From: Candidatus Omnitrophota bacterium
GTDB lineage: Bacteria; Omnitrophota; Gorgyraeia; DTHP01
Reading direction: 5' to 3'
Assembly: GCA_023819145.1 (NCBI GenBank)
Contig: JAMWCW010000001.1
Coordinates: 2,400 to 66,399 of the forward strand
Length of the DNA stretch: 64,000 bases
This document shows positions 3,977-46,415 of the stretch, piece by piece; the first letter of the stretch is position 1, and each line of letters opens with the position of its first letter. Both the position numbers and the translations under genes were made by a program. The notes beneath the pieces were generated by a model. It saw only the letters and a program-made list of their open reading frames with translations. It ran no database searches and was not told the origin of the DNA.

Positions 3977-3977
3977 T

Positions 3978-4006: not shown

Positions 4007-4018
4007 AATTTTTCCTTT

Positions 4019-4101
4019 GCGAGGGTGGTGGAACTGGCATACACACAGGCCTAAGGAGCCTGGCTCTTTGGAGCGTGAGGGTTCAAATCCCTCCCCTCGC
4101 A
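4019..4101 (+). tRNA. tRNA-Leu (class II, long variable arm); anticodon read as AAG; no encoded CCA
   Basis: Acceptor GCGAGGG/CCCTCGC plus discriminator A. 3-bp D-stem (GTG/CAC). Anticodon stem CAGGC/GCCTG with loop CTAAGGA. Variable arm GCTC-TTTG-GAGC. T-arm GAGGG-TTCAAAT-CCCTC. Overall close to the E. coli tRNA-Leu architecture. Confidence 0.7.
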
Positions 4102-4142
4102 TTCGTTATTTGAGTTTCGAATTTTGAATAAAAGGAGTAGAA

Positions 4143-4238
4143 ATGGGGAAAGTTTTATTAGTGGTTTTGATTGTGGTCGTGTTTACGCTTCTTTCTAAAC
4201 GCTGTGTTTGTGGCAAGAAAAAGGAAGAGAAGAAGTAA
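4143..4238 (+). CDS. small hydrophobic peptide (31 aa, MGKVLLVVLIVVVFTLLSKRCVCGKKKEEKK)
   Basis: RBS AAAAGGAG 7 nt upstream of ATG. One predicted TM helix followed by a Lys/Glu-rich tail. Below the ORF-track size cut-off. Lies between tRNA-Leu and the convergent response-regulator gene. Confidence 0.35.
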   Translation: MGKVLLVVLIVVVFTLLSKRCVCGKKKEEKK

Positions 4239-4244
4239 TTTCAG

Positions 4245-5177: not shown

Positions 5178-5179
5178 GT

Positions 5180-7969: not shown

Positions 7970-8016
7970 AATTTACTAAATCATAGAATAATCGTTTGCA
8001 TATGTCAATAAATTTC

Positions 8017-8045
8017 TTGACATTAATACCTTAGCCTAATAAAAT
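8017..8045 (+). promoter_or_regulatory. sigma70-like promoter for tRNA-Glu (TTGACA, 17 nt, TAAAAT)
   Basis: -35 TTGACA 8017-8022, 17-nt spacer, -10 TAAAAT 8040-8045, ~45 nt upstream of the tRNA. Same -10 hexamer as the tRNA-Leu promoter. Confidence 0.35.
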
Positions 8046-8091
8046 AAAATACCTAATTTTACATTTTGATTTTCACACTTTTGGACTTTTT

Positions 8092-8166
8092 GGCCCCATC
8101 GTCTAGCCCGGTCTAGGACGGGAGATTCTCAGTCTTCAAACACCGGTTCAAATCCGGTTGGGGCTA
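8092..8166 (+). tRNA. tRNA-Glu, anticodon CUC
   Basis: Acceptor GGCCCCA/TGGGGCT (G1.U72) plus A73. 'TCGTCTAG' D-arm typical of tRNA-Glu. Anticodon stem GGAGA/TCTTC with loop TTCTCAG. 4-nt variable loop. T-arm ACCGG-TTCAAAT-CCGGT. Confidence 0.7.
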
Positions 8167-8179
8167 TTAGGAGGAACAA

Positions 8180-10758: not shown

Positions 10759-11337
10759 ATGAGTAAAGTTTTAGGAGGTTTGTTTTTAGCAGTGCTGCTG
10801 TTGGTGACCTCTTCTGCTTCTGCCCAAGAGAAGCTGGTGATTGCCGATTTTGACAGCGGAGTAAAACCCAACAACATCGGTGGCGACTTTGGGGCTTGGG
10901 ATAAAGACCCTGCGGATTTTACCCAGATGTGTGTGGAGAGTTTTAATGTTACGGAAAGATATGGCGAATCTGGTTTTTGCATGGCCATTGATTATGATGT
11001 TGACTCTCCTAATCCTGCCTACAATGGTTTCTGGATGAAATTAAACGGCGCAGATTTTTCCAAGTATAAGAAACTATTGCTTAAGGTAAAAGGAGATGTC
11101 ACCAAAGGTTACACCAAAGTAGTTAAAATAGAATTGAAGAATAATAAAGGAGAAGTAGGGAAATACTATATTACGGAAGTAGCCGATAATTGGAAAACTT
11201 TAGAAATACCCTTCTTAAAATTCGCTGGAATTACCGACTTCTCTAATATGACTGAATTTGTTATTGTTTTTGAAGATTGGCGTTCGACTAAAAAAGAGGG
11301 AAGAATCTATATTGATGATTTGATGGTAAGCGAATAA
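10759..11337 (+). CDS. small secreted protein consisting of one beta-sandwich CBM/CIA30-like module
   Basis: RBS AAAGGAGGTGA. Signal peptide 'LFLAVLLLVTSSASA'. Motifs 'DFDSGVKPNNIGGDFGAWDKDP', 'NPAYNGFWMKLNG', 'KGEVGKYYITEV', 'EFVIVFED...KEGRIYIDDL' are shared with the 13424 paralog and with module copies in other proteins of the locus. Confidence 0.5.
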   Translation: MSKVLGGLFLAVLLLVTSSASAQEKLVIADFDSGVKPNNIGGDFGAWDKDPADFTQMCVESFNVTERYGESGFCMAIDYDVDSPNPAYNGFWMKLNGADFSKYKKLLLKVKGDVTKGYTKVVKIELKNNKGEVGKYYITEVADNWKTLEIPFLKFAGITDFSNMTEFVIVFEDWRSTKKEGRIYIDDLMVSE

Positions 11338-13423: not shown

Positions 13424-14155
13424 ATGTTTAAAAGGTTTTTTTGGTCTTTGTTGGTTATTTTTCTCCTTCTGGGCATAAGTCTCTCCTTATATAGTTGCGC
13501 TCCCAAGAAGGAAGCAAGTAAACCCGAGGAGAAAAAAGAGGAGGCAAAAGGGGTAATTACTGAATCTGCTAAAGTAGAGGAGCCGGTACAGGAGATTGAG
13601 GTAACCGGTGAACTTGCTAAGCCCAAGCTTAAACTCACCCGCGAAGGTGCCTTAATCGCTGCTGACTTTGACACCTGCAAAAAACCTAATAATCTGGGAG
13701 GAGACTTTGGCGCCTGGAACAAAGACCCTAATGATTTTTCTCAAGGATGTTTTGACAGTTTTGTTTCTACTATTAAACGTGGAGACGATGGTTGTTCGAT
13801 GCAAATAATGTATGATGTGGATTCTGTGAATCCTGCCTACAATGGATTCTGGATGAGATTGGAAGGTGTTGACCTTTCTGCCTACAAGGCAATTTCTTTC
13901 TGGTTAAAGGGCGATGAGATGCGTGGATTTACAAAGGTATTTAAGGTAGAGTTGAAAAACACCAAGGGGCATTTAGGAAAATATTATGTAACCGAAGTGA
14001 CTAAAGACTGGAAAGAGATTGTTATCCCTCTGGATAAATTTGCCGGGTTAGAAGACAGGACTTCCATGCATGAATTTGTGATTGTTTTTGAGGACAGGGT
14101 CGCCACTAAAAAAGAGGGAGCAATCTATATTGACGATATTACATTCTTAAAATAG
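13424..14155 (+). CDS. secreted CBM/CIA30-like module protein (paralog of 10759 ORF) with Lys/Glu-rich N-terminal linker
   Basis: RBS AAAAGGAGGTGA. 'ADFDTCKKPNNLGGDFGAWNKDPNDFSQGC', 'NPAYNGFWMRLEG', 'KGHLGKYYVTEV', 'EFVIVFED...KEGAIYIDDI' align motif-for-motif with the 10759 ORF. Confidence 0.5.
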   Translation: MFKRFFWSLLVIFLLLGISLSLYSCAPKKEASKPEEKKEEAKGVITESAKVEEPVQEIEVTGELAKPKLKLTREGALIAADFDTCKKPNNLGGDFGAWNKDPNDFSQGCFDSFVSTIKRGDDGCSMQIMYDVDSVNPAYNGFWMRLEGVDLSAYKAISFWLKGDEMRGFTKVFKVELKNTKGHLGKYYVTEVTKDWKEIVIPLDKFAGLEDRTSMHEFVIVFEDRVATKKEGAIYIDDITFLK

Positions 14156-15920: not shown

Positions 15921-18503
15921 ATGGATTATTTTTCTATAAAAAAAAGTAGTTTCTGGCTATGTTTAGTCTTCTTACTTTTGTCTCTAAAGGAATTAAGTGC
16001 CTTTATCGGCGTTGGTGATGATAATCTTTATAATATTTCTGCTACAAGTGGTGATTATTACCAAGTTGTAAGTCCTGCAGTTACTTCTTTGTTTCAACGG
16101 GCAAAAACAGAAATCTTTCCCCCTGTATTTAGTGATACTTTAGCTGCTTCCATTGGTATTATAACACAATACAGTTGGAAGAGTTTTCCCGATAATCCCA
16201 ATCAGAGTATTTCCGCAGTATACGACTATGACCCCTATTTTGGTGCGCTTCCTATTTTGCGTATTGATTATGATGTTTCTTCTTACTCCGCAGGAGTATT
16301 TAACGGTTATGCCTTAAAAATTAATACACAGGATTTTTCGCAAGATTTTTATAACCCTATTGTTTTCTATATTCGCGGTGACCCGACATTAGGGTTTACC
16401 CGGAGGTTGAAGATAGAATTTAAAAATAGCCGTGGCAAAGTAGGTTCATATATCATTGAGGGAATTAGTGAAAACTGGCAGAAGATTACTATTGATAAAA
16501 CCCGCGTAGGCAGAGATTTTTCCTTTAGAAGCGATTGGCAGGATATAGAAGAGATAGTTCTGGTATTTGAAGAATGGGGAGTTACTGCGCAGGAGGGAAG
16601 AATATATTTAGCAGGATTTACTTATCCTGAATCCTGGCAGGTTGCTTCTGCAGTAGAAAATATTTACGCAGAATTGAGCCTTCTTTCTCCTGATGAACAA
16701 CAAAGAGTGCTTTCGCAGATTGTTGGTCCGGGGGTAGCCTATAGTTTCAAACCTTTAGATATCGCATCCATAAAAAATTGGATTTTATCTTCTCAAGAGC
16801 ACATTGCTAACGATAGCGGAATTTACTCCTTGAACCAGATGCTTAGAAGTTTAGGTTCTCATACTCCTTCTTTTTCTGATTTAAGAATTGCGGGGGTAGT
16901 CTCTTCCCTGCTGGCAGGGAAAGAGGGAAGAGGAGGGTATAATTCTTCTTTATATGACTTATACCGTTCTGCACAGCTAAACGGTCATCCGATTTATGCA
17001 TTTAGACTTCCTAATTTTTCCGCCTTGGAAGATTTCTTTAACAAAACAGGTAAAATTCCCCTTGTTGCCGAGTTAAAGACTGGAGAGTTTGTCCTCTTAA
17101 ATGGATTTGAGAGAGGCGGGTTTCTCTGGCTAACCAAATTTGTCAAATTTGATTGCTTGGGTGAAGAGGTAACGATGAGCGAACAAGAGTTTACTCAACT
17201 CTGGACAGGTAACATTCTTAGTTTAAGAACTGCCTCTTCCTATCAGCCGTTAGCCAATGAAGAGGTTTTTCAAGGAACAAGTATAACTTCCTATATTGTA
17301 GAAGAAATGTTAGAGAGAGCAAAAGAACTTTCTAATACAGCATATCACCCTCCAGAGATAAAGCCCGTGAGTGTGCTTGACCCTCCTCTTTATGGTCGTC
17401 CTGAGGCAGAGGGTTTAGTTTATCAGGAATATCTGGCTATCGGAGGAGACAAATTTTATGATGATGGTTTGTGGTGGTTTCAAGCAAGACCGCGGGGAAG
17501 TCAAAATAAACTTCCGCTTAAGGTATTCTTGTATGACCCGAAAAGTCTTCGTTATAGTGAAGTTCCTTATGATTTTAATCGCTATAATTATTCTCGTGCT
17601 ACACCGCCAATTACCTATGTTCCTCCAGAAGGGAGGTATATTACTGCTTTAGATATTGGACACATTCTGGTATCAGGAAGTTTTCCCCAGTTTTTTACCA
17701 TTGGTGGGGATGGTTACATGCGTTTTGTGCCTTTGACAGAAGGTAGGGAAATGGGAGCATCTTTCCGAGTAGCTGGGCAAAACATTACCCACTCCCGGCA
17801 GGGAGGGGATCCTTACGATGAGAGTTTTCCTATTGTCAGGGAATTGTATGTGAAAAAGGTTTCGGAGAGCGTTATCAATCTCGTTGCCCTCGTGGATGCT
17901 GAGGGTTTTACCGGGGTTTTAGATATGTATCTCTATCCTCAGGAAATAACCCGTATGGAGGTAGATGCTCGGTTTTTTATGCGACGCGATATGCTAATTT
18001 CCCAGGAGCCAGATACAGGTTTTGCGGGGTTTAGCAGTATGTTTTTCTTGGGCGATGAAAAAAATGACGCAATGATTGGAGAAGTACGTCATACTCCTTG
18101 GAATCCTTATGATGAAGCCCATGATTCCGATTATTTAGTGGTGCATTTTGCGGATGGGAGTAGGGTTGAGCAACTAATTAATAGACCCTTCGAAGCAGGA
18201 AGGGTAGATAGATACGACTTTTCTAAGCCCGATACAGAAATTGTGGGGTTTTCTTTGCAACAGAGAGATAGAAATCCCAGCCACTACCGTGCTTTTCCTA
18301 CCTCTGATTATACTAATCGTCCATCTTTTGATTTAAGAGTGCCTTCCTCCAACATTCCTCTTAGTGTAAAACTCTATGAGATATCTACCGATAACGAGTA
18401 TGTAGATAATATAGTCGCTTTTTTGACCATGGGGAGGAGTTTATACCGTGGAGAAGAAGTACATATAAGATATGAGGTAACCGCTTATGATTACCCGGGA
18501 TAA
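15921..18503 (+). CDS. secreted 860-aa protein: N-terminal CBM/CIA30-like module + possible C39-like (papain-fold) domain
   Basis: Signal peptide 'FWLCLVFLLLSLKELSA'. Module 'FNGYALKINTQDF...KVGSYIIEGISENWQKITI...EEIVLVFEEW...QEGRIYLAGF'. Mid-region 'GEFVLLNGFERGGFLWLTKF...EVTMSEQEFTQLWTGNILSL' resembles the C39-like pattern seen in the ORFs at 60918 and 62579. Confidence 0.4.
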   Translation: MDYFSIKKSSFWLCLVFLLLSLKELSAFIGVGDDNLYNISATSGDYYQVVSPAVTSLFQRAKTEIFPPVFSDTLAASIGIITQYSWKSFPDNPNQSISAVYDYDPYFGALPILRIDYDVSSYSAGVFNGYALKINTQDFSQDFYNPIVFYIRGDPTLGFTRRLKIEFKNSRGKVGSYIIEGISENWQKITIDKTRVGRDFSFRSDWQDIEEIVLVFEEWGVTAQEGRIYLAGFTYPESWQVASAVENIYAELSLLSPDEQQRVLSQIVGPGVAYSFKPLDIASIKNWILSSQEHIANDSGIYSLNQMLRSLGSHTPSFSDLRIAGVVSSLLAGKEGRGGYNSSLYDLYRSAQLNGHPIYAFRLPNFSALEDFFNKTGKIPLVAELKTGEFVLLNGFERGGFLWLTKFVKFDCLGEEVTMSEQEFTQLWTGNILSLRTASSYQPLANEEVFQGTSITSYIVEEMLERAKELSNTAYHPPEIKPVSVLDPPLYGRPEAEGLVYQEYLAIGGDKFYDDGLWWFQARPRGSQNKLPLKVFLYDPKSLRYSEVPYDFNRYNYSRATPPITYVPPEGRYITALDIGHILVSGSFPQFFTIGGDGYMRFVPLTEGREMGASFRVAGQNITHSRQGGDPYDESFPIVRELYVKKVSESVINLVALVDAEGFTGVLDMYLYPQEITRMEVDARFFMRRDMLISQEPDTGFAGFSSMFFLGDEKNDAMIGEVRHTPWNPYDEAHDSDYLVVHFADGSRVEQLINRPFEAGRVDRYDFSKPDTEIVGFSLQQRDRNPSHYRAFPTSDYTNRPSFDLRVPSSNIPLSVKLYEISTDNEYVDNIVAFLTMGRSLYRGEEVHIRYEVTAYDYPG

Positions 18504-20416: not shown

Positions 20417-20557
20417 TTATATGGAAAATAAAAAATTAAAAACATACATAATTATTACCTTATGGCTAAAAGGTAGAAAATGAAATATTTATTTTATATA
20501 AAAATTGCACTAGACAATTCCCTAGCGTATTTAAGGGAGGAAAGGGAGGAAAAACGG

Positions 20558-23500
20558 ATGAAAAATTTGGCAAAGAAAATAATTAGCTTACTACTCGTGG
20601 AATTATTCTTATTTTCTCAGACAAATTTTGGACTTACAACTCTTTTATCACCTCCACCACAACATTTATCAGTAAATAATAATCAAGATAATCAAACTCT
20701 CTTATTACCACCACCTCTTTGTGTTGATCAACAGTCATCTTTTCCCTCTTCTGTGGTGAATATACCTGAGGAGAGGATTAGAGCAGAACTTAAACCTTTG
20801 ATTGAAAAATATCTTGAAGATACCAATAGATCGTTGAATGATTTGAATACTGTAGTTAATAATTTCAGCTATTTAGTAATAGGAGGAGATGATGGTTTAG
20901 ACCTTTTCGCCTTAGAGGAAGTAAAAGCCATATTAGAAGACTCTCTTACACGACAACTAGAAACCCCTTTAGCTCAGTTTTTAGGAAAAGCTGTGCTTGA
21001 TTTAAGCCAGCGCGAAGCGGTAGTTAAACTTTCTGCCTGGAGTGGTTTATATAAAGCGGTAGGAGGATTTTTAAACAGGGACTTAAAATTAGAAGATATA
21101 AAAGACCAAAAAGCGCTCAATGATTTTGCTTTGCTGATAGCAGAAAAAGGCTATGCTTTGGGGGGTATAAAAAGGGTTTTGGGAGATGAGAAGGTAAAAG
21201 CACTTTATAGTTTAGAGGAAATATGCAATCTGCTTTCCCAGTTGCGCGGAGGCGAAACAACCTTGACCTTATTACAGGCGTTAAACGGAAATTTGCCCTC
21301 AATAAACAATTTTACTCCTTTTTCAGCAATCCCAACTGGTTATGAAGGAGGATTCAGTTTATCAGGTAGCCGGCGTAGTCCAGCTGATGCGGAGATTGGA
21401 TTTATTGTGCCTTCCCTGGAGTTAACAAATATTGCCTTCAAGATAAAGATAGATTTAGAAGAAGGTAGTGTTATGCCCGCAGTTAAATTAGAACTGGTTG
21501 ATGCCCAGGGTAATAAAGCGACTACTACCTTAGATGAGGTTACAGATTCGGGTAAGGAATATACAATAAGTAGAGACAGAGATGATTTTAAAATAGATCT
21601 AATAACTACAGCATTTGACTGGAGTAAGATAGAACGAGTTAGCTTATTTTTAGTTACCGGTGGAAGTTCTCAAGGAAAAATAACCTTGAGTGGATTGGAC
21701 GCTTTTTTACTTAGAGAAAAAAAAGAAGAGGTGTTATCAGCCGAGAAAATAAACTTTTTACTTAATTATGGGCTTTTGGGACTTAAGAAATGGGAGTTAC
21801 CTCTGGATATAGAGTTTATCAAATACATCGGTCAACTTTTAGACCATGAAACTACACGGAAAATGGTGGCTAACTGGATGGCGGTTCTACCTTATGCTCC
21901 TCAGCTCATTTGGCGTGATTTGTTTATGGAGGGTTGGAATATTAAGGATGAAGGCATCTTGGGCTATCTTACACTTACTGCCTTAGAGAGGACCGGGAAG
22001 AATAAACTCAGTCCCGCAGAGATATTGGCGACCATTCAATCCCTCGTAAGTGAATTTGAAAAGGGTGATTTTGGGATAAGCGAGGATAGGGTCTTGGTGC
22101 AATTAATGGAGAATGCTTTGGGAAGAAAACTTGATTTTAAATCTTATATGGATGTTATGGCATACCGCTACTGGAGTAAATTAAGAGATTTATTGGGTCA
22201 GGAATTTGTTAGCGAAAAATTAAACAGCCGTAGTTTGGCTAAGAGCTTTCCAAAACTTGGAGATAAAATCGAACTCATAAGAAGATTAGCTTCGGCAATA
22301 GGATTTGATATAAAACTTATGACATCTAATCCTGATACTTGGGATTGGTTCTGGAAAGAAATGGCAATAGGCACCTCCCCAGATATGATTGTGGATATAA
22401 TTTGGGGAGGTTTTGTCTTTAAAGAATTACTCGAAGGAACTCTCTGGATAGGCGAAATAGATGTGCACCATCATATCGAACAGCCTTTCTGGAGATATTT
22501 TGTGGAATATCTTCCTTATTCCGGAGCTTCCAAAGAGCAGGTAGTGAAATTTATTTTAGAAAAATACCGAAATTTACCTTATGATTCGGTAGCAGTGGGT
22601 TTCCCGGAAGTAGCTTCCTACGGAATTACTACTGCAGGTAGAACTTCCTATAATGTAGAGGCGCAAGGTCATCCTTTTACCGCGGATGAAACTAAGAGAA
22701 TGCTTTTGCTTTATCCAGCGATAAACCAGTTACTTTCCCAATTAATCGGTCTTCCTCAGCAAACCGCGCCTGTTTTGAGCATTAGAAGTTTCTTCACCGA
22801 TGAGCTTGATAGGTTGTTAAATTATTTTCTGGAAGCGCGGGATTTCTCCAGCGGAGCGATGGCTGATGCCTTGAGTGGAGTAGATAATTCTACGGCTGCC
22901 GGAGGATTTTTAGTGATGGCGGCAATCATTGCTGCAGAAGTGGGGAAGATATCAAAAGATGAGGCTAATAAGATTATTGGTAATTTCGTAAAATTTATCT
23001 CCGTGACCCAGAAGATGCATGGTTTGCTTTCCCATTATACACGGGGAGGAACAGCAGAGCGTGCAGGAAATTCAGAGTTTTCACTTATTGATACTTATTT
23101 AGCAGTTTCCGCACTCATTGCTTACCGAAATTGGCAAGGTGCAGAACCTGAAGTAGTAAAAGCAATTAACGCTTTTTTAGGTGCGGTTCAACTGGAAGCA
23201 TTGCAGGTACAGGCTAGAACGACAGGACTAATGGCCCGGGGTGGTATTTTGAACTTTGGGGTTACACCCGAAAGGGGTTTTACCGGAGGAATAGTAGATT
23301 TTTATAACGAATATATTCTCTGCTATCTTATTGCCATTGGTCAGACAGATAATCCAAATTTTGCCAGAGATATGGCTTTTTGGTTCTATAAAGGCATCAC
23401 CCGTAAACAGGGAAGCGGTGTTTCGGAAGAAGCATTTACTTATCCCTTTGAGAACTCGCTGTTTCAGTTTCAATATCCTTTGGTTTTTCTGCCGATGATG

Positions 23501-26500
23501 TTTTTAAGCGACATTGGTAGTGAATTCGGCACAACTGACTTGAATCATTTTCGTAACGCCGTAAGCGCCTTTTTAAATACCCATGCCACTGCGGTTAAGG
23601 AAGGAGATAAATTTCGCTCTTTTAACTATCATTCTTGGGCGATGAATGCTTCCGCTGCTTTAGCGAGTTATTATTCAATGGTTATAGGGATGCCTCCCCG
23701 GGATAAAGATGGAGGGAAGAGTTATTATGATGGTACTATTTCTCCCAATGCTACCTTTGGCGGTTTGCCGTTTATGCCTTATCTTTCTTACCAATCTCTG
23801 CGCTATTTGACACTTGCTTTTCCCCAGGCACAGGGTAGATATGGGTTTGTGGATTCGCTAAATCCCGAAAGAAACTGGTTTTCTCCCACCTATTTCAGTT
23901 TAGGTCAGGGGCTTGCTTTAATGGGTATCTGGGATACGCTTAATTACGGAAGATTAGACCGGGAATCTGCCTGGAGCCTAAATTTAAGAGATAAATTCTA
24001 CCTAAAATCTTTGTTTGAATTAGGATTTAGAGAAGATTTAAGCCCGCAGTTTAGTGCAGTATATCAAGAGCTAATAAACGGTGCTTTAGGGATAGAGGAA
24101 GCAGTCAAGGCGATAGTTACGGAAAAGGATTATGCTGTTCTTCGGGAATATCTTACCAGTAAAGGATTAGATACTACTGTTTTGCTTCAGAAATGGCAGG
24201 AAATTGGTCCTTGGGGTTCAAGTTTAGAAAGAGGGGCAGTTATTTCCTTTATTCGGTCTAAAATCGCCGATGGCAGATTGGATAATGCCGAGATTCAGGA
24301 AATTCTGAGGCAAGCAAGGAGTATTGCTGATTACAACCTCATTGCCGAAGTGCTTTTGGGTGACCCTCAAAAAAACAATGGTTTAATGCAATGGGCATAT
24401 GATAAAGAGAGGAATATCTATAAATTAAAATCCGATGAAGGTAGCCCTAACTATCTTCTGTTTCCGCTTCTAATGCAGTTGAGAATAGAACAGACCAAAT
24501 TGACTTTGAGTAATGTTTTCTCCGAACCGGAGATAGTTGGCAAACAAGGCCTTGACCTTGCTCAAGCCTATCTGGATAAGGTAGAAGAAATTGCTCGCGC
24601 TGCCCAATTACCTGATGAACGGGCAATTTTTGCTTTTCAACATTTTACAGAGAAGGCAGAAGGATATTATGCAAAAGCGATTGAGATATTGCAGGGTTTA
24701 ATTGATGGTAAGATTGATTCTTTAGAGGAAGTTAGAGCCCAAGCACTATTATTTACCGCTTACAAGAAAAACTGGCAATATGACCAGCAGAAAGAAGCAT
24801 TTAAACTCTTAGCCCAGGCAGTAGAGGGTAATGTTACTTTTAGGACAGAGGCAATAGATATTATCGCCTCTTATTTTGGTAGAGAAATTCTTGCTGATTA
24901 TTACCAAGCATGGGTCCATCCCCAAAAAGCTCTTACTTCAGAACAGGAGACAAAAGTAAAGGAGGCGATAGCCACTGCTCTGCAATATCCTGACCCCGAT
25001 AATCCTCCTGCTGGGAAAAGTTATGTAGATGTTTTGCTTAATAATAAGATTTCCCTTATCTTTTTTAGGGAAAAATACTTAAGGCAGCCGGTAGTTATCA
25101 ATCCTTATGATGCTACGCAGGCCGGGCAGATAGGCTATTTTGTAACTCAATTGTTCACCAAAGGGGCAAGCGAAGAGCAAATAGTGGGAATGTTGACCGA
25201 GATGCTCAGGTATAAACCTTTGGTAGAATCTGTTTTGGGAAGGGAATTAGACCTTCAGAATAACCGCAATGATTTATATTTGCTTTCCTTAGCGGTTGCA
25301 CTTTCTCTACAAAATCTTCCTGAAGCGCGCATTGCAGAAATTATCGGAGGGACTATAGTTTCTCCAGAGAATTTAGAAACGGCAATTGCAGCGGTTCAGA
25401 ATTTTATGCTTGCCCGAGATTTAAGGGCTTTTGTGGATAAAACCTTACAGCTTTCTCGCTATCTGAGAAATAAAGAAAATGTTCAGATTGCTTTTGATCC
25501 TCTATTAGGAAAGTTTTTGGGACAGGATTTGCCCACAGAAAAATGGACCGATTTTCTTATAGATATCTTGACTGTAGATAATATAGAGGAATATTTGACT
25601 TACAAGGTCATTGGGGAATTAAATAAGATTGAAAAGATAAATATTGAAAAAAACGCTTTTTATGAAAGGAGGACAACCCGCTATCGCTATAAAGATGCCT
25701 ATTTTGGTGACAATACCAATCTGGATTTGGAAAATGAAAGGGTAAGAGAAATACTTGATAAGGCTTTTATTATTAAAGCGGAATTAGAGGCTATCTATCA
25801 AACTATAATAAATGTAGAAGAATCATCTCTTGACCATCTTTTACTTACTTCTTTGGTACGGCTATCTTTAGATTCAAAAGTGAATATAGAGGAGTTATTA
25901 GGCTCATTTACTGCTACATTGAGAAGTAAAGGTATGGTTGAGGAAAAAGCGCAGAAAATCTTTCTTACCTTTATTTTACCCAATATGCCTTTGAGTTTAA
26001 TAAGCAGAGAAGGTTTTGAACAGTATGTAGCAGATGTTGTTCAATTGGCAGGAGAACTGCGTCTTTCTCTTTCAACTGCAAAAGATTTAGCCGTGGTTTC
26101 AAGTATAGTTAATCTTAAATATGCGGGGATAGAGAGTATTCCTCAAGATATAAAAGAATTATCAGTCCACTACCAAGCCCTTTTGCGGAGTCCGAAATTA
26201 GCCGATTTAAGAACTGCCCTTGGCCCTTGGGCAGGAGTAGTTTTGCCCGAGTTAGAGCGGATATTGGGCATAGATTTAACCCTTGCTACTGGAGAACAAA
26301 TTTCCCAAGCAAAGCAGTGGCTTAATGTTTTAACCCTGCCTGAATTTTCTCAAGTAGCTTCTGCGGATATAGATTTTCTTAAGGTCTGGGCGAATATTGC
26401 GAAAGAAGCAAAAATTATTGCCCAACTAAGAAAAGAATTAGAAGGATTTAAAGATTCTGCCATTAGGTTCTTGGAACAATATGTTCTCGGTGAAACCTTC

Positions 26501-29500
26501 AATTCTTCTAATCCACAACATCAGGAGAAATATTGGGAATGGATAGGATATAGAATGCCTTATGTAATGGAATGCATGCATAAGTTTATGAAATTAGATA
26601 CTGTTGAAGAGCAGAAGAAGATGTTTGTTCTGGGAAGTTCAGTTGATGCCACCATATTCAAACTTTCTACTCCTCAAACGCTTACTGTTTTGAGGCGTAG
26701 AGAGATTAGCCCTGTGGTTCAGGCATTGTATGGTGAAGGGGATATAAGAGAAGCCTACCGTTTTGGGGATAGCCCGATTACTGAGGACAATTATGCCTAT
26801 CGAGCACTGTTAAGCTATTATGCGGAATTGACTGACAAAGAAGGCAATTACCTTCCCTTATCTTTACTGGCGACTACTCTTCTTTTAGAAAAGGAACTGG
26901 TGCGTGATGCAGGATTAGAAGCGCTTTATCAGGCACATTTTAATCTTGTTACCGGGCTTCCCACAAGAGAGGGAGTTCCGCTTACCGGAGCGATAGATGT
27001 TTCGGGAATTAGCGGTTTCTATGTGAGCCAGATGGAACAATGGGCGGGTTTAGGTGCATTAGATTATCTTTTGGCATATTTAATGAAAACAGTTTCTCTT
27101 AGCGAGGCGGAGAGGTTTGTGAATATGGGAGTTGCTTCGGCTATTGATGTATTTTTAACTACCGGTCAATTACCACCAATCCAAGGATTACCTTCAGGAA
27201 TTATGGAGATATTCGCACCAGCGTTTGGAGACTGGCTGTTGTGGATTAAGGAAAATTATGCTAAGGCACTGCTCGGATTTTCAGAAGAAGATGTAAGGAG
27301 GATAATTAAAAATGATACTTTTGGCTTTATTACCAAAGCGCTTAACCAGGCATATGCCTTAAAAGAGAGCCTTGCCAGCGGAGATTCGGCAAACATAGAA
27401 TCTGTTTTAGTAAAATTATTTAATTTAGATGGCAATCCTGCGTTAATGGAACATTTAAGAAAATTGTTGGAAGAAGATTATAATCCAGAAGACTCAGTAA
27501 AGGGATTTGATTCCTTGCGCTTACTTGCTCAGATTGCCCAGATTTCTACAATAGTACGACCCTCTGAGGACGGGAAGTTCCAGAATACAAGTATAGGAAG
27601 AGTGGGGTTGAGAAAGGAACTGGAGATTTTAAGCGCCGTAAGGGGAATTGTAGAAAAAGAATTCGGCACACTTGATTTATTAAGGAGAATAGATGCAGTT
27701 TGGGTTATTTCTGGTTTTGCCACTCCGGTTATCTATGGAGAGAAGACCATTGGTCAAATAGAAACCGAGATTAAAAAGATAGCCACTGCTTACCGTATGC
27801 TGAGAACGGTTTTACCTCAGGAGGTTTTTGCAAGTACTGACCCCTTGAGTTTACTCTCCAGTCCCTTTATGTCAGGGGTGCTTTCTTTTATTAGCCAGAG
27901 ATTGCCAAGTCCTGCATTTAACATTACTTTTGATGTGGACTTAGAATACATTGTTGCTTACTTAACCGATGCTCAAGAAAAGCAGAGAATCGATAGGTTA
28001 TATAAGGCAATAGTTGATGATAAAGAAGGAGTTTTAAAGTCTTTCTTGATAAATCCTGTAAATACCAAGGATGTAAACCAGGCAGGCTTTGTCAGCGCTC
28101 TGGTAAATCGTGCTTGGAGACTGATAAAGGATAAAGGTTTAACTGAAGAACAGGCAATTGGAGAAGTAAACAAATGGCTTGAAGGAATTAGAGAATTTTT
28201 GGTATCCGCAGGGCTTCATACCGCGGATTATGTGGCAGAAATCATTGCTGATTATCGTAAGATGGGGCTCTGGTCGTATTACTTGTCGTTCATTAATCCC
28301 GTGGCTGAACAGGAATTAGCCCATGCACAATTTTCACCCACTTTTCCTGATTTTGTTTCCCGTTACAATTATTCCTTAGATGCTTATCTTCAGACGCTTC
28401 CTAATTACTCAAGGATACCTGAGGCACAGCGCACAGAATTAAAAAGTTTATGGGATAAGGTGTTAAGTAATCCTACAAATAGTGGGGCTCTGGAACGCTT
28501 TAGAGATGTCCATGAGAGGATTACGGGTTATTCTGCGCGTGTTTTTGTGGAAAATTTTGTAATTGACCAAGTTTTAAAAGGGAAAGATGTAAGTAGTTTA
28601 ATTGCTGTGGCTAATGGACTCTGGAGTGATTTTAGAATTAAAGATTCACGAGATTTAGAGAAAATTATCTGGCAATTGGGTTATAAACCTGATTGGTCGG
28701 ATAGTGATTGGCAGAAATTTAAGGCGCTTTATGAAAGATACTTAGAAACCACACTTTTTACCTCACAAGCTTATGTTTTGCCCACAGGAGAAGAAGCGCA
28801 AGCCTTAGAACTCTTCCTTAGTTATTATCTCTCTTCTCGTTTAGGAGAAAACCGCATGAGTTCTTTAGAGGCAATGCGTTTCCATCAATGGGCGGTTTTG
28901 GTAAATACTTTCGGGAAAGGAACTACTATTGAAGAAAAATGGGAAAACTTCTTTAAAGAAGTTGTTTTGCCCATGCGTCAGGAAATTGAAGCTTTAATGC
29001 CTGATTATTTTGGACGTGACCCAGTAACTGGAAAAACCTATTTTGATAAATACAATCCCGTGCATGGAGGGGTAGTAGCTTACTTTATTGAGCAGGCACT
29101 GTTTAAGATGTTTATGAATAGAGAACAGGTGAACAAACAATGGAGTCAAATGCCTGCACAAAGAGGATGGCTGGTAGGCCCACGTTTTGACCAAAAAGGG
29201 AATAGAATCGCTCAGAAGGTTTCTAATCCATATAACAATCCTCAAGAATTCTTAAGACTTGTTTTGGATGAGGTTTTAGCAGACTTAAAAGTGGCGGTTG
29301 AACTTAAACCCTATGTAGAAAAAGCAAGGATGGCCTTTATTGATGTTACTGACCCAAGAATGGCAGGAATCTTATGGTTCCATGTAAATACGCTTAAAGA
29401 CCCGCCACGCGACTGGACGCAGTTTAGTTCCTTGGGCACTTTGAAATCTCACTTAGAAAAAGAAGCGCGCATCATGCTTACGCTTGCCCAGCAAGGGCGA

Positions 29501-31891
29501 TACTTGGATATCTTTAGTCCCGAAGATATGGGAGAGCTATCCTATTATGCTCAAGAAGGAGGAATGCCTTTAGGAAAATCTCTACGTTTAGAAAAGTTGA
29601 CTCCGGAAAATGCCTTTGTCTATTTTGCCTATCCACAATGGTCCAAACTTCTTTTAGGGCAAACAGATAGTGCCTACGCCAGGATAAATGAACTTGCCCC
29701 AACCATTAAGAGATTAATCGCTTCTAATCCCTACTGGAGAGATGGGCTAACACACTGGGTTACTGATGGTTATGGTTTTGACTATGCGTTTCTTCTTCAG
29801 ATTAAAGAAGAATTAGGTATTGCTTATTTATTGCAAGCTGAGGTAGCAAAGTTCTTTGGGGTGGAAAAACTTGATTTCAATAACCAAGAACATTTGGCAA
29901 TGCTCTGGGAATATACGCAGCGCACCTACTTGAAAGCAAAAGGAAAACTAGAGGAAGAAATCCGTGCCGGAAGAGTAGCCAATGTGGATTCCGAACGAGG
30001 CTGGTCAATGCTTGTAGGTGATACAGGGAAGAATGTTTCTAAGATTGTTTTAGAAAAATATGGTCTGGACTTAACCTCCCCTGGCTGGGATAAGTATTCT
30101 CCTCTTCGGTTCTGGATTTTAGAGATGGCAAGCGCAGTCATACCTGAAGTTAGTTATGAACTTCGGGTTTTAAAGGCGGTAAGACCTATTGTAGAGACTA
30201 TTGAAAAAAGAGCCCTTAAGTTAAACGATAGCTTAGATATGCGACTTTTAGAGAATTATAAAGAGATTGCGCTTGCTTTGGGAAGAGAAATTGTGTTGAA
30301 TGCACATCGTGAAGAAATAGAAAATTTAGGTAAAGAGGCAATTTTAAGAACTTATGAGAAGGTAGTGCGTGGATTAATCCAGAAGGGAGATACCAAGGAA
30401 AAAGCAGAGGCCAGAGTACTTTTTGCTTATCGTGACCAAAGAGAAGCATTAGGAAAAACTGTCCTGTTTGCTAAATATCGAGAAGAAGCAGTTAATTTAG
30501 GAGTTCAAGAATTGGCAAGAAGGGCAGGTTTAATTACTCAACAGGCACCACCTACTCAACAAGCACCTGTAGAAGTAAAGCCTATTGAGCCTCCTAAACC
30601 ACCGGAAGTTCCCCAACCACCTGAGACCCCCAGACCACCGGAAGTTCCCCAACCACTAATTCCTCCTGAGCCTGAGCCTGAGCCTGAGCCGTTTGCACCG
30701 CAAACTCTTCCTACCGTACCAACGGTAACCATTACTCAGACGCCTTCTATCACTTTAGCTTTTGAAATCAGCAACGGCTTAAGCCTGACCTGGTCAAGGA
30801 TAAAAGATTCACAAAACAGAGAAGTTTCTAATTATCAGTGGGAAATTTTGGACGCAAAAGGAAATGTTGTGCGTAGTGGAGAAACATCAGCTTTAAGCAC
30901 TTGGATAAAATATGAGGGACTACTCAGTGGAAATTATCTTTTCCGTGTAAGAGGAGTAATAAGAGAAAAAGGCATATTTATTGAAGGCGAATGGAGTGAA
31001 CACAGTTTTAGTGTAGAAGGAGCACGAGAGCAAACTACTGAAACACCAGCTGCGGAAGGCAAGTTAAGTCCTGTGGTATTGGCTCCTTTTGTTTTTAAAG
31101 GAACAATTAGTGGAGGAGGAAATCTCAACGTTGGAGAGGAGAGTATCTTTAATCTTTGGGGGAATTATAATGAATTAGATAGTGGGTATATAATAATAAG
31201 AGAGAAAAATACAGGGAGAGAAATAGAAAGAATTGTCGTAAATAGCGGAGACAATCGTTATCGTTATTCCTGGACTAATGCCGGACAATATGTGATTCAG
31301 TTGGTAGGTACGAAAGCAGGTGCAACTTATAATTCTAATGAAATAGAGGTTTGGGTAAAACAACCAACTAGTGCAACGAGTGTAACCAGCGCAACGACTA
31401 CTTCTCGTGTACCCGTAGCAGTTAATTGGTCAGCTTATCAATCACCCGAAATAAATCCCCGTGTAAGTGATTCTGAGAATGTCCGCCAGCGAGTTAGCCA
31501 TTATCAAGGAACTACTTCCAAGGATTCCACAGCCCGTTTCTGGAGCGAAAAAGTTTTTGCGTCTATTTTGGCTACCGTAAGAGATAGACAAAAAGCATTT
31601 GTTTTAACCGATATGACAATGTTTGCTTTCACATCTGTTTTTGGAACTTTGCCCAATATGACTGAAAAAGGAGCAGGAATCTGGCACAATGAGATAATTA
31701 GAGCACCAACACAACAACAGTATATCAGTGCAGGTGTTTTTGCTCAGAATTTAGTTATTGATTGGACAACTAAAGCTACAAATTATTTCCGCATGAATTA
31801 TTACTCTGGTTGCAACGCGGATAATTTAATTAAAAAGGCAATTGAAGAGGCAAACCGCTTTGTCTGGGAACGTCAGCATTTATATTTCTAA
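20558..31891 (+). CDS. giant secreted protein (~3777 aa), largely alpha-helical, with a beta-sandwich cassette near the N-terminus, a Pro/Glu-rich linker and an Fn3-like C-terminal region
   Basis: Uninterrupted 11.3-kb ORF. Strong RBS GGGAGGAAAGGGAGG before the ATG at 20558 (the track ORF begins at an upstream in-frame ATG at 20480). Signal peptide 'LLLVELFLFSQTNFG'. No catalytic motif recognised. Confidence 0.7.
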   Translation: MKNLAKKIISLLLVELFLFSQTNFGLTTLLSPPPQHLSVNNNQDNQTLLLPPPLCVDQQSSFPSSVVNIPEERIRAELKPLIEKYLEDTNRSLNDLNTVVNNFSYLVIGGDDGLDLFALEEVKAILEDSLTRQLETPLAQFLGKAVLDLSQREAVVKLSAWSGLYKAVGGFLNRDLKLEDIKDQKALNDFALLIAEKGYALGGIKRVLGDEKVKALYSLEEICNLLSQLRGGETTLTLLQALNGNLPSINNFTPFSAIPTGYEGGFSLSGSRRSPADAEIGFIVPSLELTNIAFKIKIDLEEGSVMPAVKLELVDAQGNKATTTLDEVTDSGKEYTISRDRDDFKIDLITTAFDWSKIERVSLFLVTGGSSQGKITLSGLDAFLLREKKEEVLSAEKINFLLNYGLLGLKKWELPLDIEFIKYIGQLLDHETTRKMVANWMAVLPYAPQLIWRDLFMEGWNIKDEGILGYLTLTALERTGKNKLSPAEILATIQSLVSEFEKGDFGISEDRVLVQLMENALGRKLDFKSYMDVMAYRYWSKLRDLLGQEFVSEKLNSRSLAKSFPKLGDKIELIRRLASAIGFDIKLMTSNPDTWDWFWKEMAIGTSPDMIVDIIWGGFVFKELLEGTLWIGEIDVHHHIEQPFWRYFVEYLPYSGASKEQVVKFILEKYRNLPYDSVAVGFPEVASYGITTAGRTSYNVEAQGHPFTADETKRMLLLYPAINQLLSQLIGLPQQTAPVLSIRSFFTDELDRLLNYFLEARDFSSGAMADALSGVDNSTAAGGFLVMAAIIAAEVGKISKDEANKIIGNFVKFISVTQKMHGLLSHYTRGGTAERAGNSEFSLIDTYLAVSALIAYRNWQGAEPEVVKAINAFLGAVQLEALQVQARTTGLMARGGILNFGVTPERGFTGGIVDFYNEYILCYLIAIGQTDNPNFARDMAFWFYKGITRKQGSGVSEEAFTYPFENSLFQFQYPLVFLPMMFLSDIGSEFGTTDLNHFRNAVSAFLNTHATAVKEGDKFRSFNYHSWAMNASAALASYYSMVIGMPPRDKDGGKSYYDGTISPNATFGGLPFMPYLSYQSLRYLTLAFPQAQGRYGFVDSLNPERNWFSPTYFSLGQGLALMGIWDTLNYGRLDRESAWSLNLRDKFYLKSLFELGFREDLSPQFSAVYQELINGALGIEEAVKAIVTEKDYAVLREYLTSKGLDTTVLLQKWQEIGPWGSSLERGAVISFIRSKIADGRLDNAEIQEILRQARSIADYNLIAEVLLGDPQKNNGLMQWAYDKERNIYKLKSDEGSPNYLLFPLLMQLRIEQTKLTLSNVFSEPEIVGKQGLDLAQAYLDKVEEIARAAQLPDERAIFAFQHFTEKAEGYYAKAIEILQGLIDGKIDSLEEVRAQALLFTAYKKNWQYDQQKEAFKLLAQAVEGNVTFRTEAIDIIASYFGREILADYYQAWVHPQKALTSEQETKVKEAIATALQYPDPDNPPAGKSYVDVLLNNKISLIFFREKYLRQPVVINPYDATQAGQIGYFVTQLFTKGASEEQIVGMLTEMLRYKPLVESVLGRELDLQNNRNDLYLLSLAVALSLQNLPEARIAEIIGGTIVSPENLETAIAAVQNFMLARDLRAFVDKTLQLSRYLRNKENVQIAFDPLLGKFLGQDLPTEKWTDFLIDILTVDNIEEYLTYKVIGELNKIEKINIEKNAFYERRTTRYRYKDAYFGDNTNLDLENERVREILDKAFIIKAELEAIYQTIINVEESSLDHLLLTSLVRLSLDSKVNIEELLGSFTATLRSKGMVEEKAQKIFLTFILPNMPLSLISREGFEQYVADVVQLAGELRLSLSTAKDLAVVSSIVNLKYAGIESIPQDIKELSVHYQALLRSPKLADLRTALGPWAGVVLPELERILGIDLTLATGEQISQAKQWLNVLTLPEFSQVASADIDFLKVWANIAKEAKIIAQLRKELEGFKDSAIRFLEQYVLGETFNSSNPQHQEKYWEWIGYRMPYVMECMHKFMKLDTVEEQKKMFVLGSSVDATIFKLSTPQTLTVLRRREISPVVQALYGEGDIREAYRFGDSPITEDNYAYRALLSYYAELTDKEGNYLPLSLLATTLLLEKELVRDAGLEALYQAHFNLVTGLPTREGVPLTGAIDVSGISGFYVSQMEQWAGLGALDYLLAYLMKTVSLSEAERFVNMGVASAIDVFLTTGQLPPIQGLPSGIMEIFAPAFGDWLLWIKENYAKALLGFSEEDVRRIIKNDTFGFITKALNQAYALKESLASGDSANIESVLVKLFNLDGNPALMEHLRKLLEEDYNPEDSVKGFDSLRLLAQIAQISTIVRPSEDGKFQNTSIGRVGLRKELEILSAVRGIVEKEFGTLDLLRRIDAVWVISGFATPVIYGEKTIGQIETEIKKIATAYRMLRTVLPQEVFASTDPLSLLSSPFMSGVLSFISQRLPSPAFNITFDVDLEYIVAYLTDAQEKQRIDRLYKAIVDDKEGVLKSFLINPVNTKDVNQAGFVSALVNRAWRLIKDKGLTEEQAIGEVNKWLEGIREFLVSAGLHTADYVAEIIADYRKMGLWSYYLSFINPVAEQELAHAQFSPTFPDFVSRYNYSLDAYLQTLPNYSRIPEAQRTELKSLWDKVLSNPTNSGALERFRDVHERITGYSARVFVENFVIDQVLKGKDVSSLIAVANGLWSDFRIKDSRDLEKIIWQLGYKPDWSDSDWQKFKALYERYLETTLFTSQAYVLPTGEEAQALELFLSYYLSSRLGENRMSSLEAMRFHQWAVLVNTFGKGTTIEEKWENFFKEVVLPMRQEIEALMPDYFGRDPVTGKTYFDKYNPVHGGVVAYFIEQALFKMFMNREQVNKQWSQMPAQRGWLVGPRFDQKGNRIAQKVSNPYNNPQEFLRLVLDEVLADLKVAVELKPYVEKARMAFIDVTDPRMAGILWFHVNTLKDPPRDWTQFSSLGTLKSHLEKEARIMLTLAQQGRYLDIFSPEDMGELSYYAQEGGMPLGKSLRLEKLTPENAFVYFAYPQWSKLLLGQTDSAYARINELAPTIKRLIASNPYWRDGLTHWVTDGYGFDYAFLLQIKEELGIAYLLQAEVAKFFGVEKLDFNNQEHLAMLWEYTQRTYLKAKGKLEEEIRAGRVANVDSERGWSMLVGDTGKNVSKIVLEKYGLDLTSPGWDKYSPLRFWILEMASAVIPEVSYELRVLKAVRPIVETIEKRALKLNDSLDMRLLENYKEIALALGREIVLNAHREEIENLGKEAILRTYEKVVRGLIQKGDTKEKAEARVLFAYRDQREALGKTVLFAKYREEAVNLGVQELARRAGLITQQAPPTQQAPVEVKPIEPPKPPEVPQPPETPRPPEVPQPLIPPEPEPEPEPFAPQTLPTVPTVTITQTPSITLAFEISNGLSLTWSRIKDSQNREVSNYQWEILDAKGNVVRSGETSALSTWIKYEGLLSGNYLFRVRGVIREKGIFIEGEWSEHSFSVEGAREQTTETPAAEGKLSPVVLAPFVFKGTISGGGNLNVGEESIFNLWGNYNELDSGYIIIREKNTGREIERIVVNSGDNRYRYSWTNAGQYVIQLVGTKAGATYNSNEIEVWVKQPTSATSVTSATTTSRVPVAVNWSAYQSPEINPRVSDSENVRQRVSHYQGTTSKDSTARFWSEKVFASILATVRDRQKAFVLTDMTMFAFTSVFGTLPNMTEKGAGIWHNEIIRAPTQQQYISAGVFAQNLVIDWTTKATNYFRMNYYSGCNADNLIKKAIEEANRFVWERQHLYF
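30599..30688 (+). repeat. in-frame tandem repeats in the Pro-rich linker of the giant protein: 22-nt direct repeat x2 and (CCTGAG)x4 encoding (PE)4
   Basis: 'ccaccggaagttccccaaccac' at 30599-30620 and 30635-30656. 'cctgag' x4 at 30665-30688. Protein reads 'KPPEVPQPPETPRPPEVPQPLIPPEPEPEPEPF'. Confidence 0.6.
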
Positions 31892-34431: not shown

Positions 34432-36243
34432 ATGAAAAGAGGGGGATTAAATATTCTTTGTGCAGTGCTTTTTTTCCTTCCGGCAGGATATTGGGGAGAT
34501 AATTTGAAAATTTCTGTTCTTTCTTCACAACAGACTCAAGATGCCCAGAAAGTGGCTGCGATAGCTTCTCCATCATTAAGCGAAATGGTTTCAGGACGTC
34601 CCACTGTTGAGACACCTTTTTTGGCTGGACCAGAGTATTATCTACCTTTTATTACTTTGCGCAAAAATTTGGATAAAAAGCACATTTGTTCTTGGGTTCC
34701 TCGGCAGTCCTTTTGGACGGGATGGCTCGAACCTAACAATTACTGGACAAGAATTGGTGACTTTATCAATCTCGATTATTTGTTGGAAGAGTCGGAAATA
34801 AATAGCGGAAAATTCATTCTTTATAATTTAGAAATCATTGATAGACTTTTACAAATGGACGTTAAACAAATCGCCGGCAAAAGGGTAAAGAAGATTGAAG
34901 AAATTTCTCCACTTAAAACTATTGGGATTGGCAGTCGCTTTCCCGAGGACAAAGATAAAATTTACCTTGACCAATTACCGGGGATAAAGGGAGTAAAATT
35001 TATTTTAGAAGATAATTCCGAGATTGTAGTCTTACCATCTTTTTACCAACAGCCCACTTTGGCAATCTTAACTTACGGCGGTAATAATAGAGACAAGAAT
35101 GTTTCGGTTGCCATAACCCAGAAATTGGAAGAGAGCTTTCTGGATACGGTGCTTAACCAGGTAATAATCTCAGCTAAGGAGGAGATTAGAACCCAGACCT
35201 TGGAAGATGTGGTGAAGAAATATCTCTTTGGGGAGATACCTGCACAACTTAATTATGTCCAGTGGAAACGCTTGGTAGAGGAGATGGAGAGAGTAGAAAC
35301 TGAATTAAAGGAAGTGACGGTTACTACCTCTTTAAGAGAGCTTTTAGGAAATGTTTTGCCCTCAATAAACAATTTTACTTCTTTTTCAGCAATCCCAACT
35401 GGTTATGAAGGAGGATTCAGGTTATCAGGTAGCCGGCGTAGTCCAGCTAATGCGGAGATTGGATTTATTGTGCCTTCCCTGGAGTTAACAAATATTGCCT
35501 TCAAGATAAAGATAGATTTAGAAGAAGGTAGTGTTATGCCCGCAGTTAAATTAGAACTGGTTGATGCCCAGGGTAATAAAGCGACTACTACCTTAGATGA
35601 GGTTACAGATTCGGGTAAGGAGTATACAATAAGTAGAGACAGAGATGATTTTAAAATAGATCTAATAACTGGAACGGCATTTGACTGGAGGAAGATAGAA
35701 CGAGTTAAATTATCTTTAGTTACCGGTGGGAGTTCTCAAGGAAAAATAACCTTAGAGGATATCGATTTAAAAAAGGAATCTCCTGCTTCTGTTTCTTTAG
35801 GGACGATGATGGCAGAATATAAGTTACGGGCATACCTTAAACCTTATGTTGCCAAATTCTTTGACCTGCCTGTTTATTCTCCCTATTTTGACACCAAACC
35901 CATCGTTAAAAAATGGTTTGATTGCTTTGCCAATGCTACCTCTGCTGGCGTAGTCAAAGGAGATTTTTCTGTAGCGGAGGTACTTGGGTCTATAGGTTAC
36001 TGGGGTATGCTTAAAGCATTTCTTACCTCTCTTCGTCAGATTATAACCTTGCCTTCTAATCCTGTAGAGGAAAAAATACTTTTAGATTTTGGTGGAGATA
36101 TTTATTCTTTTGTGCAGGGACTTGACTTGTCTTCGGCAGTTCCCGAGGGAGTGGAGATAGAGTCATTGACTTTTGAAACAAAATTGCTATTATTACCCGA
36201 GGATATTTTGCTTTTTATAATGCGGGAGGCTTATGAAATATAA
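34432..36243 (+). CDS. secreted protein, 603 aa, carrying the same ~130-aa beta-sandwich cassette as the giant protein
   Basis: RBS AAGGGGG. Signal peptide 'LNILCAVLFFLPAGYWG'. Residues ~310-440 ('LPSINNFTSFSAIPTGYEGGF...GSSQGKITL') are near-identical to giant-protein residues ~245-375. Confidence 0.5.
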   Translation: MKRGGLNILCAVLFFLPAGYWGDNLKISVLSSQQTQDAQKVAAIASPSLSEMVSGRPTVETPFLAGPEYYLPFITLRKNLDKKHICSWVPRQSFWTGWLEPNNYWTRIGDFINLDYLLEESEINSGKFILYNLEIIDRLLQMDVKQIAGKRVKKIEEISPLKTIGIGSRFPEDKDKIYLDQLPGIKGVKFILEDNSEIVVLPSFYQQPTLAILTYGGNNRDKNVSVAITQKLEESFLDTVLNQVIISAKEEIRTQTLEDVVKKYLFGEIPAQLNYVQWKRLVEEMERVETELKEVTVTTSLRELLGNVLPSINNFTSFSAIPTGYEGGFRLSGSRRSPANAEIGFIVPSLELTNIAFKIKIDLEEGSVMPAVKLELVDAQGNKATTTLDEVTDSGKEYTISRDRDDFKIDLITGTAFDWRKIERVKLSLVTGGSSQGKITLEDIDLKKESPASVSLGTMMAEYKLRAYLKPYVAKFFDLPVYSPYFDTKPIVKKWFDCFANATSAGVVKGDFSVAEVLGSIGYWGMLKAFLTSLRQIITLPSNPVEEKILLDFGGDIYSFVQGLDLSSAVPEGVEIESLTFETKLLLLPEDILLFIMREAYEI

Positions 36244-40494: not shown

Positions 40495-40529
40495 ATTATG
40501 TGTTTATAATAAGAAAGGAGTGGTTAAAA

Positions 40530-43754: not shown

Positions 43755-43766
43755 AAAGGAGCAATA

Positions 43767-46397: not shown

Positions 46398-46415
46398 AAA
46401 TAATGAGGGATTTTT

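Follow-up and report, generated by a model that had tools for sequence, protein, structure and literature searches.

In a stretch of 64,000 nt (nucleotides) from the genome of a Candidatus Omnitrophota bacterium (assembly GCA_023819145.1, contig JAMWCW010000001.1 of 221 kb, positions 2,400 to 66,399 of the forward strand; the window hereafter), a protein-coding segment of about 400 bp occurs in two nearly identical copies, one in a giant gene and the other in an orphan gene 14 kb downstream. The explanation that we consider probable is that this segment, the cassette, encodes a single jelly-roll module, is native to the giant gene, and was very recently copied into the orphan gene in a non-reciprocal manner, or re-homogenised with a copy that was already there, by intrachromosomal recombination. 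In this explanation, the module is most likely one that resembles carbohydrate-binding modules (CBMs). The genetic part is well supported; the direction, the recombination mechanism and the binding of a glycan are inferred. The two genes (open reading frames, ORFs; lengths in amino acids, aa) and the parts of the repeat are as follows.

20480..31891, + strand: giant ORF of 3803 aa, MCM8783172.1 / NC818_00110; the NCBI start is the second Met at 20558 (3777 aa)
34432..36243, + strand: orphan ORF of 603 aa, MCM8783174.1 / NC818_00120, with an N-terminal signal-like segment; probable recipient
21292..21690, + strand: cassette copy A, part of the giant ORF (aa 272-403 numbered from 20480); supported by the alignment, the AlphaFold2 (AF2) model and the counterpart in L005, a contig of another Omnitrophota genome
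35355..35756, + strand: cassette copy B, part of the 603-aa ORF (aa 309-441); one additional Gly codon and 10 nt differences relative to copy A
21292..21607 (partner 35355-35670), + strand: high-identity core with 4 differences in 316 nt (98.7%), dS ~0.014
21608..21687 (partner 35674-35753), + strand: 3' tract after the codon indel with 6 differences in 80 nt (92.5%), older or faster-diverging

A preliminary description of this DNA had reported a near-identical segment of about 400 bp shared by the two genes, and this is real. The copies agree at 389 of 399 nt with one codon indel, and MAFFT, a repeat search and a scripted alignment gave the same result. Both are on one strand, their starts 14,063 nt apart, and their longest common exact run is 172 nt. 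The codon phase at the start is equal, and both copies are in frame within intact ORFs. At the protein level they are ~93% identical, with seven substitutions and one indel over 133 aa. The level of identity given in the preliminary description, 98-99%, was correct for the 5' part, but the length of that part is 316 nt rather than ~330 bp. Likewise, the 3-nt indel that it placed near the end is present, as an insertion of GGA (Gly) in copy B directly after the core, whereas the simple divergence described beyond this point is not found, since 92.5% identity persists for 80 nt past the indel.

The edges of the repeat are sharp. Outside either end, identity in 20-nt windows drops at once to 20-35%, which is the random level, and just 5' of 21292 only a GGAAAT hexamer and a 3-nt indel are recognized in common by eye. 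When 15-90 nt of the adjoining DNA were aligned with gaps, the result was not significant against shuffles. The protein flanks of the two copies were not significant either, except for a marginal p=0.046 for the 50 aa upstream. Decayed homology in the form of shoulders around the repeat, as would be left by old paralogs with an internal conversion tract, was rejected on these nucleotide and protein tests. The host proteins have no similarity beyond the cassette, and their flanks are unrelated at both the DNA and the protein level. The repeat search found no other long near-identical repeat within the window.

It is the synonymous sites that speak for copying at the level of DNA. dS is 0.046 for the whole segment and 0.014 in the core, with a dN/dS of ~0.5. 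Since synonymous sites are near-identical, recent exchange of DNA is indicated and not selection on the protein. Near-identity at synonymous sites together with abrupt edges, the combination taken here as the mark of gene conversion or recent segmental duplication, is found in this pair. The data thus point to a recent non-reciprocal transfer of DNA, that is, segmental duplication of the domain and/or gene conversion, in line with the recent duplication, gene conversion or cassette exchange that had been suggested from first inspection. Seven of the ten nucleotide differences are nonsynonymous, and the mismatch types are mixed and run in both directions (C/T, T/G, G/A, A/G, and C/A). Divergence falls into two tiers, 4/316 (1.3%) against 6/80 (7.5%; Fisher p=0.006), which suggests more than one event. 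One reading is that an older copy was later re-converted over its 5' part, and the other is that the last strands of the domain change faster; the test rests on ten substitutions, a number too small to separate re-conversion from faster change at the 3' end.

The cassette encodes one complete all-beta domain of ~133 aa (LPSINNFT...GKITL). The claim that the same beta-sandwich of about 130 aa sits in otherwise unrelated proteins is supported by a complete domain, an all-beta AF2 model and unrelated flanks. The model, built from both copies (156 aa), has nine beta strands in a jelly-roll beta-sandwich and is of moderate quality (pLDDT 63, pTM 0.59). The identity tract starts ~6 residues ahead of the first strand of the model and ends ~1 residue (at most ~4) before the last strand is complete. 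For the full-length 603-aa protein, the model is poor (pLDDT 39) and presents an all-beta island flanked by helical regions. Foldseek matches of the cassette model include the CBM11 structures 1v0a and 6r31, as well as C-terminal domains of phage tailspikes.

By sequence, the domain belongs to no described family. Neither copy has a Pfam match at E<=10 in hmmscan, and a PDB sequence search with a 3-sequence profile returned nothing meaningful. No close relatives of the cassette were found in a word-indexed database of 5.8 billion proteins, or in genome contigs, JGI metagenome contigs and viral contigs. Exhaustive phmmer against 1.84 billion representative proteins returned the giant protein itself and nine weak matches. 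Most of these nine are Big_1/invasin-type proteins with tandem immunoglobulin (Ig)-like domains, which match only at a hairpin, PAVxVxVxDAxGNxV. Identity with the Ig-like Big_1 or invasin D3 domain was rejected, as the resemblance is at the level of this motif and no profile match spans the ~90-aa Ig domain. The search of related genomes for the cassette in other proteins, suggested in the preliminary description, yielded a distant copy in L005 and no close relatives in other proteins.

Probable remote relatives of the cassette are encoded in the window itself. The top non-self matches of the cassette in tblastn and hmmsearch are ORFs with similarity to CBM11, for which the hhalign match is weak but collinear.

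10759..11337, + strand: small secreted CBM11-like protein (PF03425, E 1e-9, 39.0 bits), a remote relative of the cassette
13424..14155, + strand: second CBM11-like protein (PF03425, E 1e-7, 32.6 bits), 61% identical to the 10759 protein
16200..16640, + strand: CBM11-like N-terminal module of an MdoG/OpgG-like protein (ORF 15921-18503), the best non-self tblastn match of the cassette in the window (E 0.008)

A further relative, P0004, is an unannotated metagenomic protein of 4,024 aa (JGI 3300031576, Ga0247727_10000594, L006 8001-20075). Its 19 tandem repeats of ~180 aa align collinearly with the cassette over its full length (phmmer E 1e-6, whole library). The gene is followed by one for an unannotated protein of 1,735 aa and then by the exopolysaccharide-export genes BBP2_2, Poly_export/SLBB and Wzz/GNVR. 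Homology between the cassette and these repeats extends over nearly the entire cassette, and in both cases the host is a giant, presumably surface-located protein, that of the repeats lacking Pfam annotation. The repeats differ in their tandem arrangement and in a Cys-containing N-terminal extension, whereas the cassette is a single ~133-aa copy per protein, and identity between the two is ~20-30%. Profile-profile comparison connects the three groups as follows.

Cassette vs P0004 repeats: Prob 84%, E 7e-6
P0004 repeats vs CBM11-like domains of the window: Prob 79%, E 1.5e-5
Merged profile vs CBM11-like domains: Prob 89%, E 2e-6
Cassette vs CBM11-like domains, direct: Prob 9%, E 0.004
Reversed-sequence controls: Prob 0.2%, E ~0.3

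These values support a kinship with CBM11 at the level of a superfamily, not membership in the family. Like CBM11 (PF03425; Clostridium thermocellum Lic26A-Cel5E, PDB 1v0a/6r31), the cassette is modelled as a beta-jelly-roll of similar size, and hhalign aligns the collinear motifs xIxFxxKG..., VK[IL]E[LF]x[DN]xxG, W/Y-K-x-I-x-I, D-[WF]-x-x-[MI], and G-x-I-x-[IL]. True CBM11-like proteins are also present in its locus. Unlike CBM11, neither copy matches PF03425 at E<=10 (gathering score 27 bits), the direct comparison reaches only the 9% given above, and the link requires the P0004 repeats as an intermediate. The evidence supports the view that the cassette represents a beta-sandwich family that lacks annotation and has a remote kinship with CBM11-like modules, and its most likely function would be that of a CBM-like domain for ligand binding or targeting.

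The giant protein consists of an N-terminal hydrophobic signal or anchor, the cassette, a GH144-type domain (glycoside hydrolase family 144), a long and mostly unannotated region, a Pro-rich linker and C-terminal beta domains. The GH144-type domain (~22892-23929) is similar to endo-beta-1,2-glucanase (PDB 5gzh, E 1e-11). A scan of metagenomes with conserved stretches of the C-terminus gave no match. A distant ortholog of the giant gene with 42% identity is encoded in L005, which derives from another Omnitrophota metagenome-assembled genome (MAG; GCA_026387065.1). The first ORF of L005, truncated at its 5' end, forms a single high-scoring segment pair with aa 315-954 of the giant protein, running from inside the cassette across its 3' edge into giant-specific sequence. 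Because this alignment is continuous through the 3' edge, the domain is ancestral at this position in the giant-gene lineage. It is thus native to the lineage of this GH144-like gene and vertically inherited there. The giant and L005 copies have the motifs PxKLELVDxxG, DF, FDW, and SxxGxI in common. Domain identity between them is ~30%, below the 42% of the whole alignment, against ~93% for the two copies within one genome.

The giant ORF matches at least four consecutive separate ORFs in L005 (1-9591), which correspond to it as follows.

L005 1-2131: giant aa 315-954
L005 2133-4778: giant aa 994-1836
L005 4787-6970: giant aa 2033-2426
L005 6906-9591: giant aa 2455-3268

This arrangement may reflect either gene fusion in the window genome or fission or frameshifts in L005.

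The 603-aa protein, on the other hand, is an orphan. It has no Pfam or NCBIfam match and no detected homolog apart from the cassette, and no ortholog of its gene was found in searches of proteins, genome contigs and metagenome contigs. L004 carries a relative that is closer to the giant gene (66% identity), and the gene following it has no relationship with those at 32124 and 34432. Since the 603-aa protein lacks homologs and the downstream gene in L004 is unrelated, the 603-aa gene is the probable recipient, and the transfer probably went from the giant gene to it. In the public clustering at 90%, the 603-aa protein is represented by P0012, an unrelated 52-aa MoaA-like fragment, so that word-indexed searches are unable to retrieve it. 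P0012 was accordingly rejected as a relative and is regarded as a database artefact. A scan for promoters and terminators at ~31.8-36.4 kb gave nothing notable. Downstream of the 603-aa gene, 36259-40494 encodes a protein of 1411 aa which is a partial paralog of the giant protein without the cassette; the PF10091 region and an adjoining segment of ~100 aa are 30-34% identical between the two.

The proposed course of events begins with non-reciprocal intrachromosomal recombination between the two co-oriented genes 14 kb apart. The segment coding for the domain would have been duplicated, and gene conversion would have followed or would be equivalent to this step. If an older copy was present, its 5' 316 nt would have been overwritten again recently. 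Being in frame and supplying a complete module, the copy would have been kept, and the orphan protein would thereby gain the same address, a glycan or a surface, as the giant glucanase-like protein. To a bolder proposal only a small chance can be given: the cassette and the P0004-type repeats would constitute a new CBM family specific for beta-1,2-glucan or another envelope glycan of prey or host. Ongoing gene conversion would prevent the modules of the giant glucanase and of the neighbouring orphan from diverging, so that both are targeted to the same ligand, as a shared address tag under concerted evolution in a surface-attack locus of Omnitrophota.

Several other origins of the repeat were weighed against the recent copying proposed above. 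Strong purifying selection at the protein level might have preserved ancient paralogous domains as identical without any recent exchange of DNA, and the domain is indeed old in the giant-gene lineage. This possibility is effectively refuted: synonymous sites are almost unchanged in the core, dN/dS is not far below 1, and identity falls to the random level at sharp edges. In addition, orthologs with 42% identity overall have only ~30% in the domain, and so the domain is not highly constrained. It is also improbable that short-read metagenome assembly produced the second copy, or its near-identity, through a chimeric join or through a consensus that was collapsed or drawn across strains. The source is a MAG, and the 603-aa protein is present in no independent assembly. 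The 172-nt exact run exceeds common assembler k-mer sizes, so that phasing of single-nucleotide polymorphisms across it depends on read pairs. Nevertheless, a mis-join is judged unlikely.

Programmed variation would explain the pair as donor and acceptor cassettes of gene conversion of the antigenic-variation type, or as the template and variable repeats of a diversity-generating retroelement (DGR). In its favour, DGRs occur frequently in uncultured lineages with small cells, the two host proteins have the features of secreted or surface proteins, and the nonsynonymous share of the differences would fit. However, the mismatches are not specific to adenine, no reverse transcriptase was found among the scanned window ORFs of at least 150 aa, and both copies reside in intact, expressed-looking ORFs, so that neither is silent. 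There are only two copies, and the tract of 400 bp covers the entire domain and not a C-terminal variable loop region. A DGR pair, for which mismatches confined to adenine and a nearby reverse transcriptase are diagnostic, was rejected since the mismatches are of mixed types and the scanned ORFs gave no such enzyme; programmed variation as a whole is very improbable. Slightly less credible still is the idea that the two genes acquired the module independently from a mobile source outside the genome, such as a phage, a plasmid or a cassette borne on an insertion sequence. The region is dynamic in that the block after GH94 (described below) is absent in close relatives, and the fold matches include the tailspike domains mentioned above. 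Against this, searches of viral, genome and JGI metagenome contigs and of the 1.84 billion representative proteins recovered no close relative of the cassette. The copies are not bordered by inverted or direct terminal repeats, and no transposase or integrase was seen among the scanned ORFs adjoining them. Moreover, the 42%-identical ortholog in L005 has the domain at the equivalent position, which indicates vertical inheritance in the giant gene.

The two copies lie in a locus of glycan metabolism. The block comprises GH94, GH144-like, DUF3131 and MdoG/OpgG-like genes, and almost every protein of it begins, by eye, with a hydrophobic segment resembling a signal or anchor. The GH144, GH94 and OpgG/GH186 families are tied to beta-1,2-glucan metabolism (PMC12102758, PMC10514313, PMC11842490). 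Besides the genes given above, the following belong to the locus.

8180-10633: GH94
ORF 11396: PF10091/DUF3131 protein, with a paralog of its C-terminal part at ORF 14762
ORF 36259: second PF10091 protein

A segment of 72 nt for the last strands of the CBM11-like modules (EFVIVFEDW..TKKEGRIYIDD) recurs at 11248-11319, 14066-14137 and 16545-16616, with 81% and 61% nt identity among the genes 10759, 13424 and 15921. From its sequence, this conservation is taken as the trace of an earlier round in which modules of this locus were duplicated. In three relatives (L001-L003) with GH94 proteins at least 90% identical and 76% nt identity over window positions 3413-10633, synteny ends exactly at the GH94 stop codon. 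There, dprA-topA-xerC follow directly after GH94, and the block with the glucan genes and the giant gene is absent at that position. Because synteny breaks at this stop codon, the whole downstream block is variable between related species. It is thus a lineage-variable island that starts exactly after the GH94 stop codon; its right boundary was not found within the window.

Other features of the window were noted in passing. Six consecutive ORFs at 40500-52933 (40500, 43767, 46416, 48595, 50516 and 51374) all start with a hydrophobic helix, and their products include CofD-like, ROK-like, PGI, 6PGL/GlcN6P-isomerase-like and PRPP-synthetase-N-like enzymes, which are normally cytosolic. An invariant RR lies 10-20 aa past the helix in the context [FLIY]-x-RR-[ILQ]-[KRL] (LLRRIR, LLRRIK, ITRRIK, IFRRLK, AFRRQK and SYRRIL). 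By a strict regular expression, four of the six have this motif at N-terminal positions 32-53, and it occurs once internally in ORF 15921 (FTRRLK, aa 159). The motif may be a common N-terminal anchor or sorting signal. Further downstream, degenerate 9-nt periodic repeats (AACGAANNN) with neighbouring 7-nt arrays of GTAATCG and AAAGTGT occur at 53696-53770 and 54691-54870. They flank a toxin-antitoxin-like block located between two clusters of large genes, which contains a DUF6036/AbiEii-like gene (52997-53488) and, by eye, a nucleotidyltransferase-like (53969-54238) and a HEPN-like gene (54231-54656). A GC-rich palindrome of 40 nt (TCCACCTCGTAGGTGG...CCACCTACGAGGTGG) is found at 50458-50497 and 62448-62487 with 75% identity. 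Each copy is placed directly past the end of a gene (48595 and 60918) and has the appearance of a repeat of hairpin or terminator type.

It is well known that binding modules are shuffled among secreted modular proteins and undergo gene conversion. As in the CBM and dockerin modules of cellulosomal enzymes or the repeat domains of adhesins, a discrete module of binding type is found nearly identical in otherwise unrelated secreted proteins. As in other systems of intragenomic domain shuffling, synonymous sites are homogenised and the copies are close together in direct orientation. Here, in contrast, there are only two copies, the module falls in no described family, and the hosts are a GH144-like giant of 3.8 kaa (thousand amino acids) and an orphan from an uncultured member of Omnitrophota, known from sequence alone. 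Giant proteins of this phylum are rich in duplicated CBM-like modules, and domain duplication is the rule in them (bioRxiv 10.1101/2023.11.21.568195, 10.64898/2026.06.07.730766). The giant protein of the window resembles the proteins of these two preprints in its phylum, in being very long and secreted or membrane-anchored, in repeated CBM-like beta modules and in a glycoside-hydrolase context. It differs from them in that 3.8 kaa is far under the described classes of 10-30 kaa or larger, in that no HEAT/TPR or dockerin signature is present, and in that the duplication is between two genes and not in tandem within one.

The case is thus a sound and ordinary one of domain shuffling or gene conversion. 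It leaves the current understanding unchanged and adds one more member to a known class of events. Its new part is modest, namely an unannotated domain family and a very recent copy between genes in a locus putatively of the beta-1,2-glucan type. Direct repeats of 400 bp could also mediate deletion or duplication of the 14-kb interval, which calls for caution whenever the contig is used. For the family, the analysis marks out the two copies of the window, the copy in L005 and the 19 tandem copies in P0004. Given its remote kinship with CBM11 and its putative beta-1,2-glucan-type locus, the family is a reasonable candidate for binding studies. For the organism, the pair offers a clean and datable example of how modular secreted proteins gain a domain in an uncultured phylum rich in giant genes.

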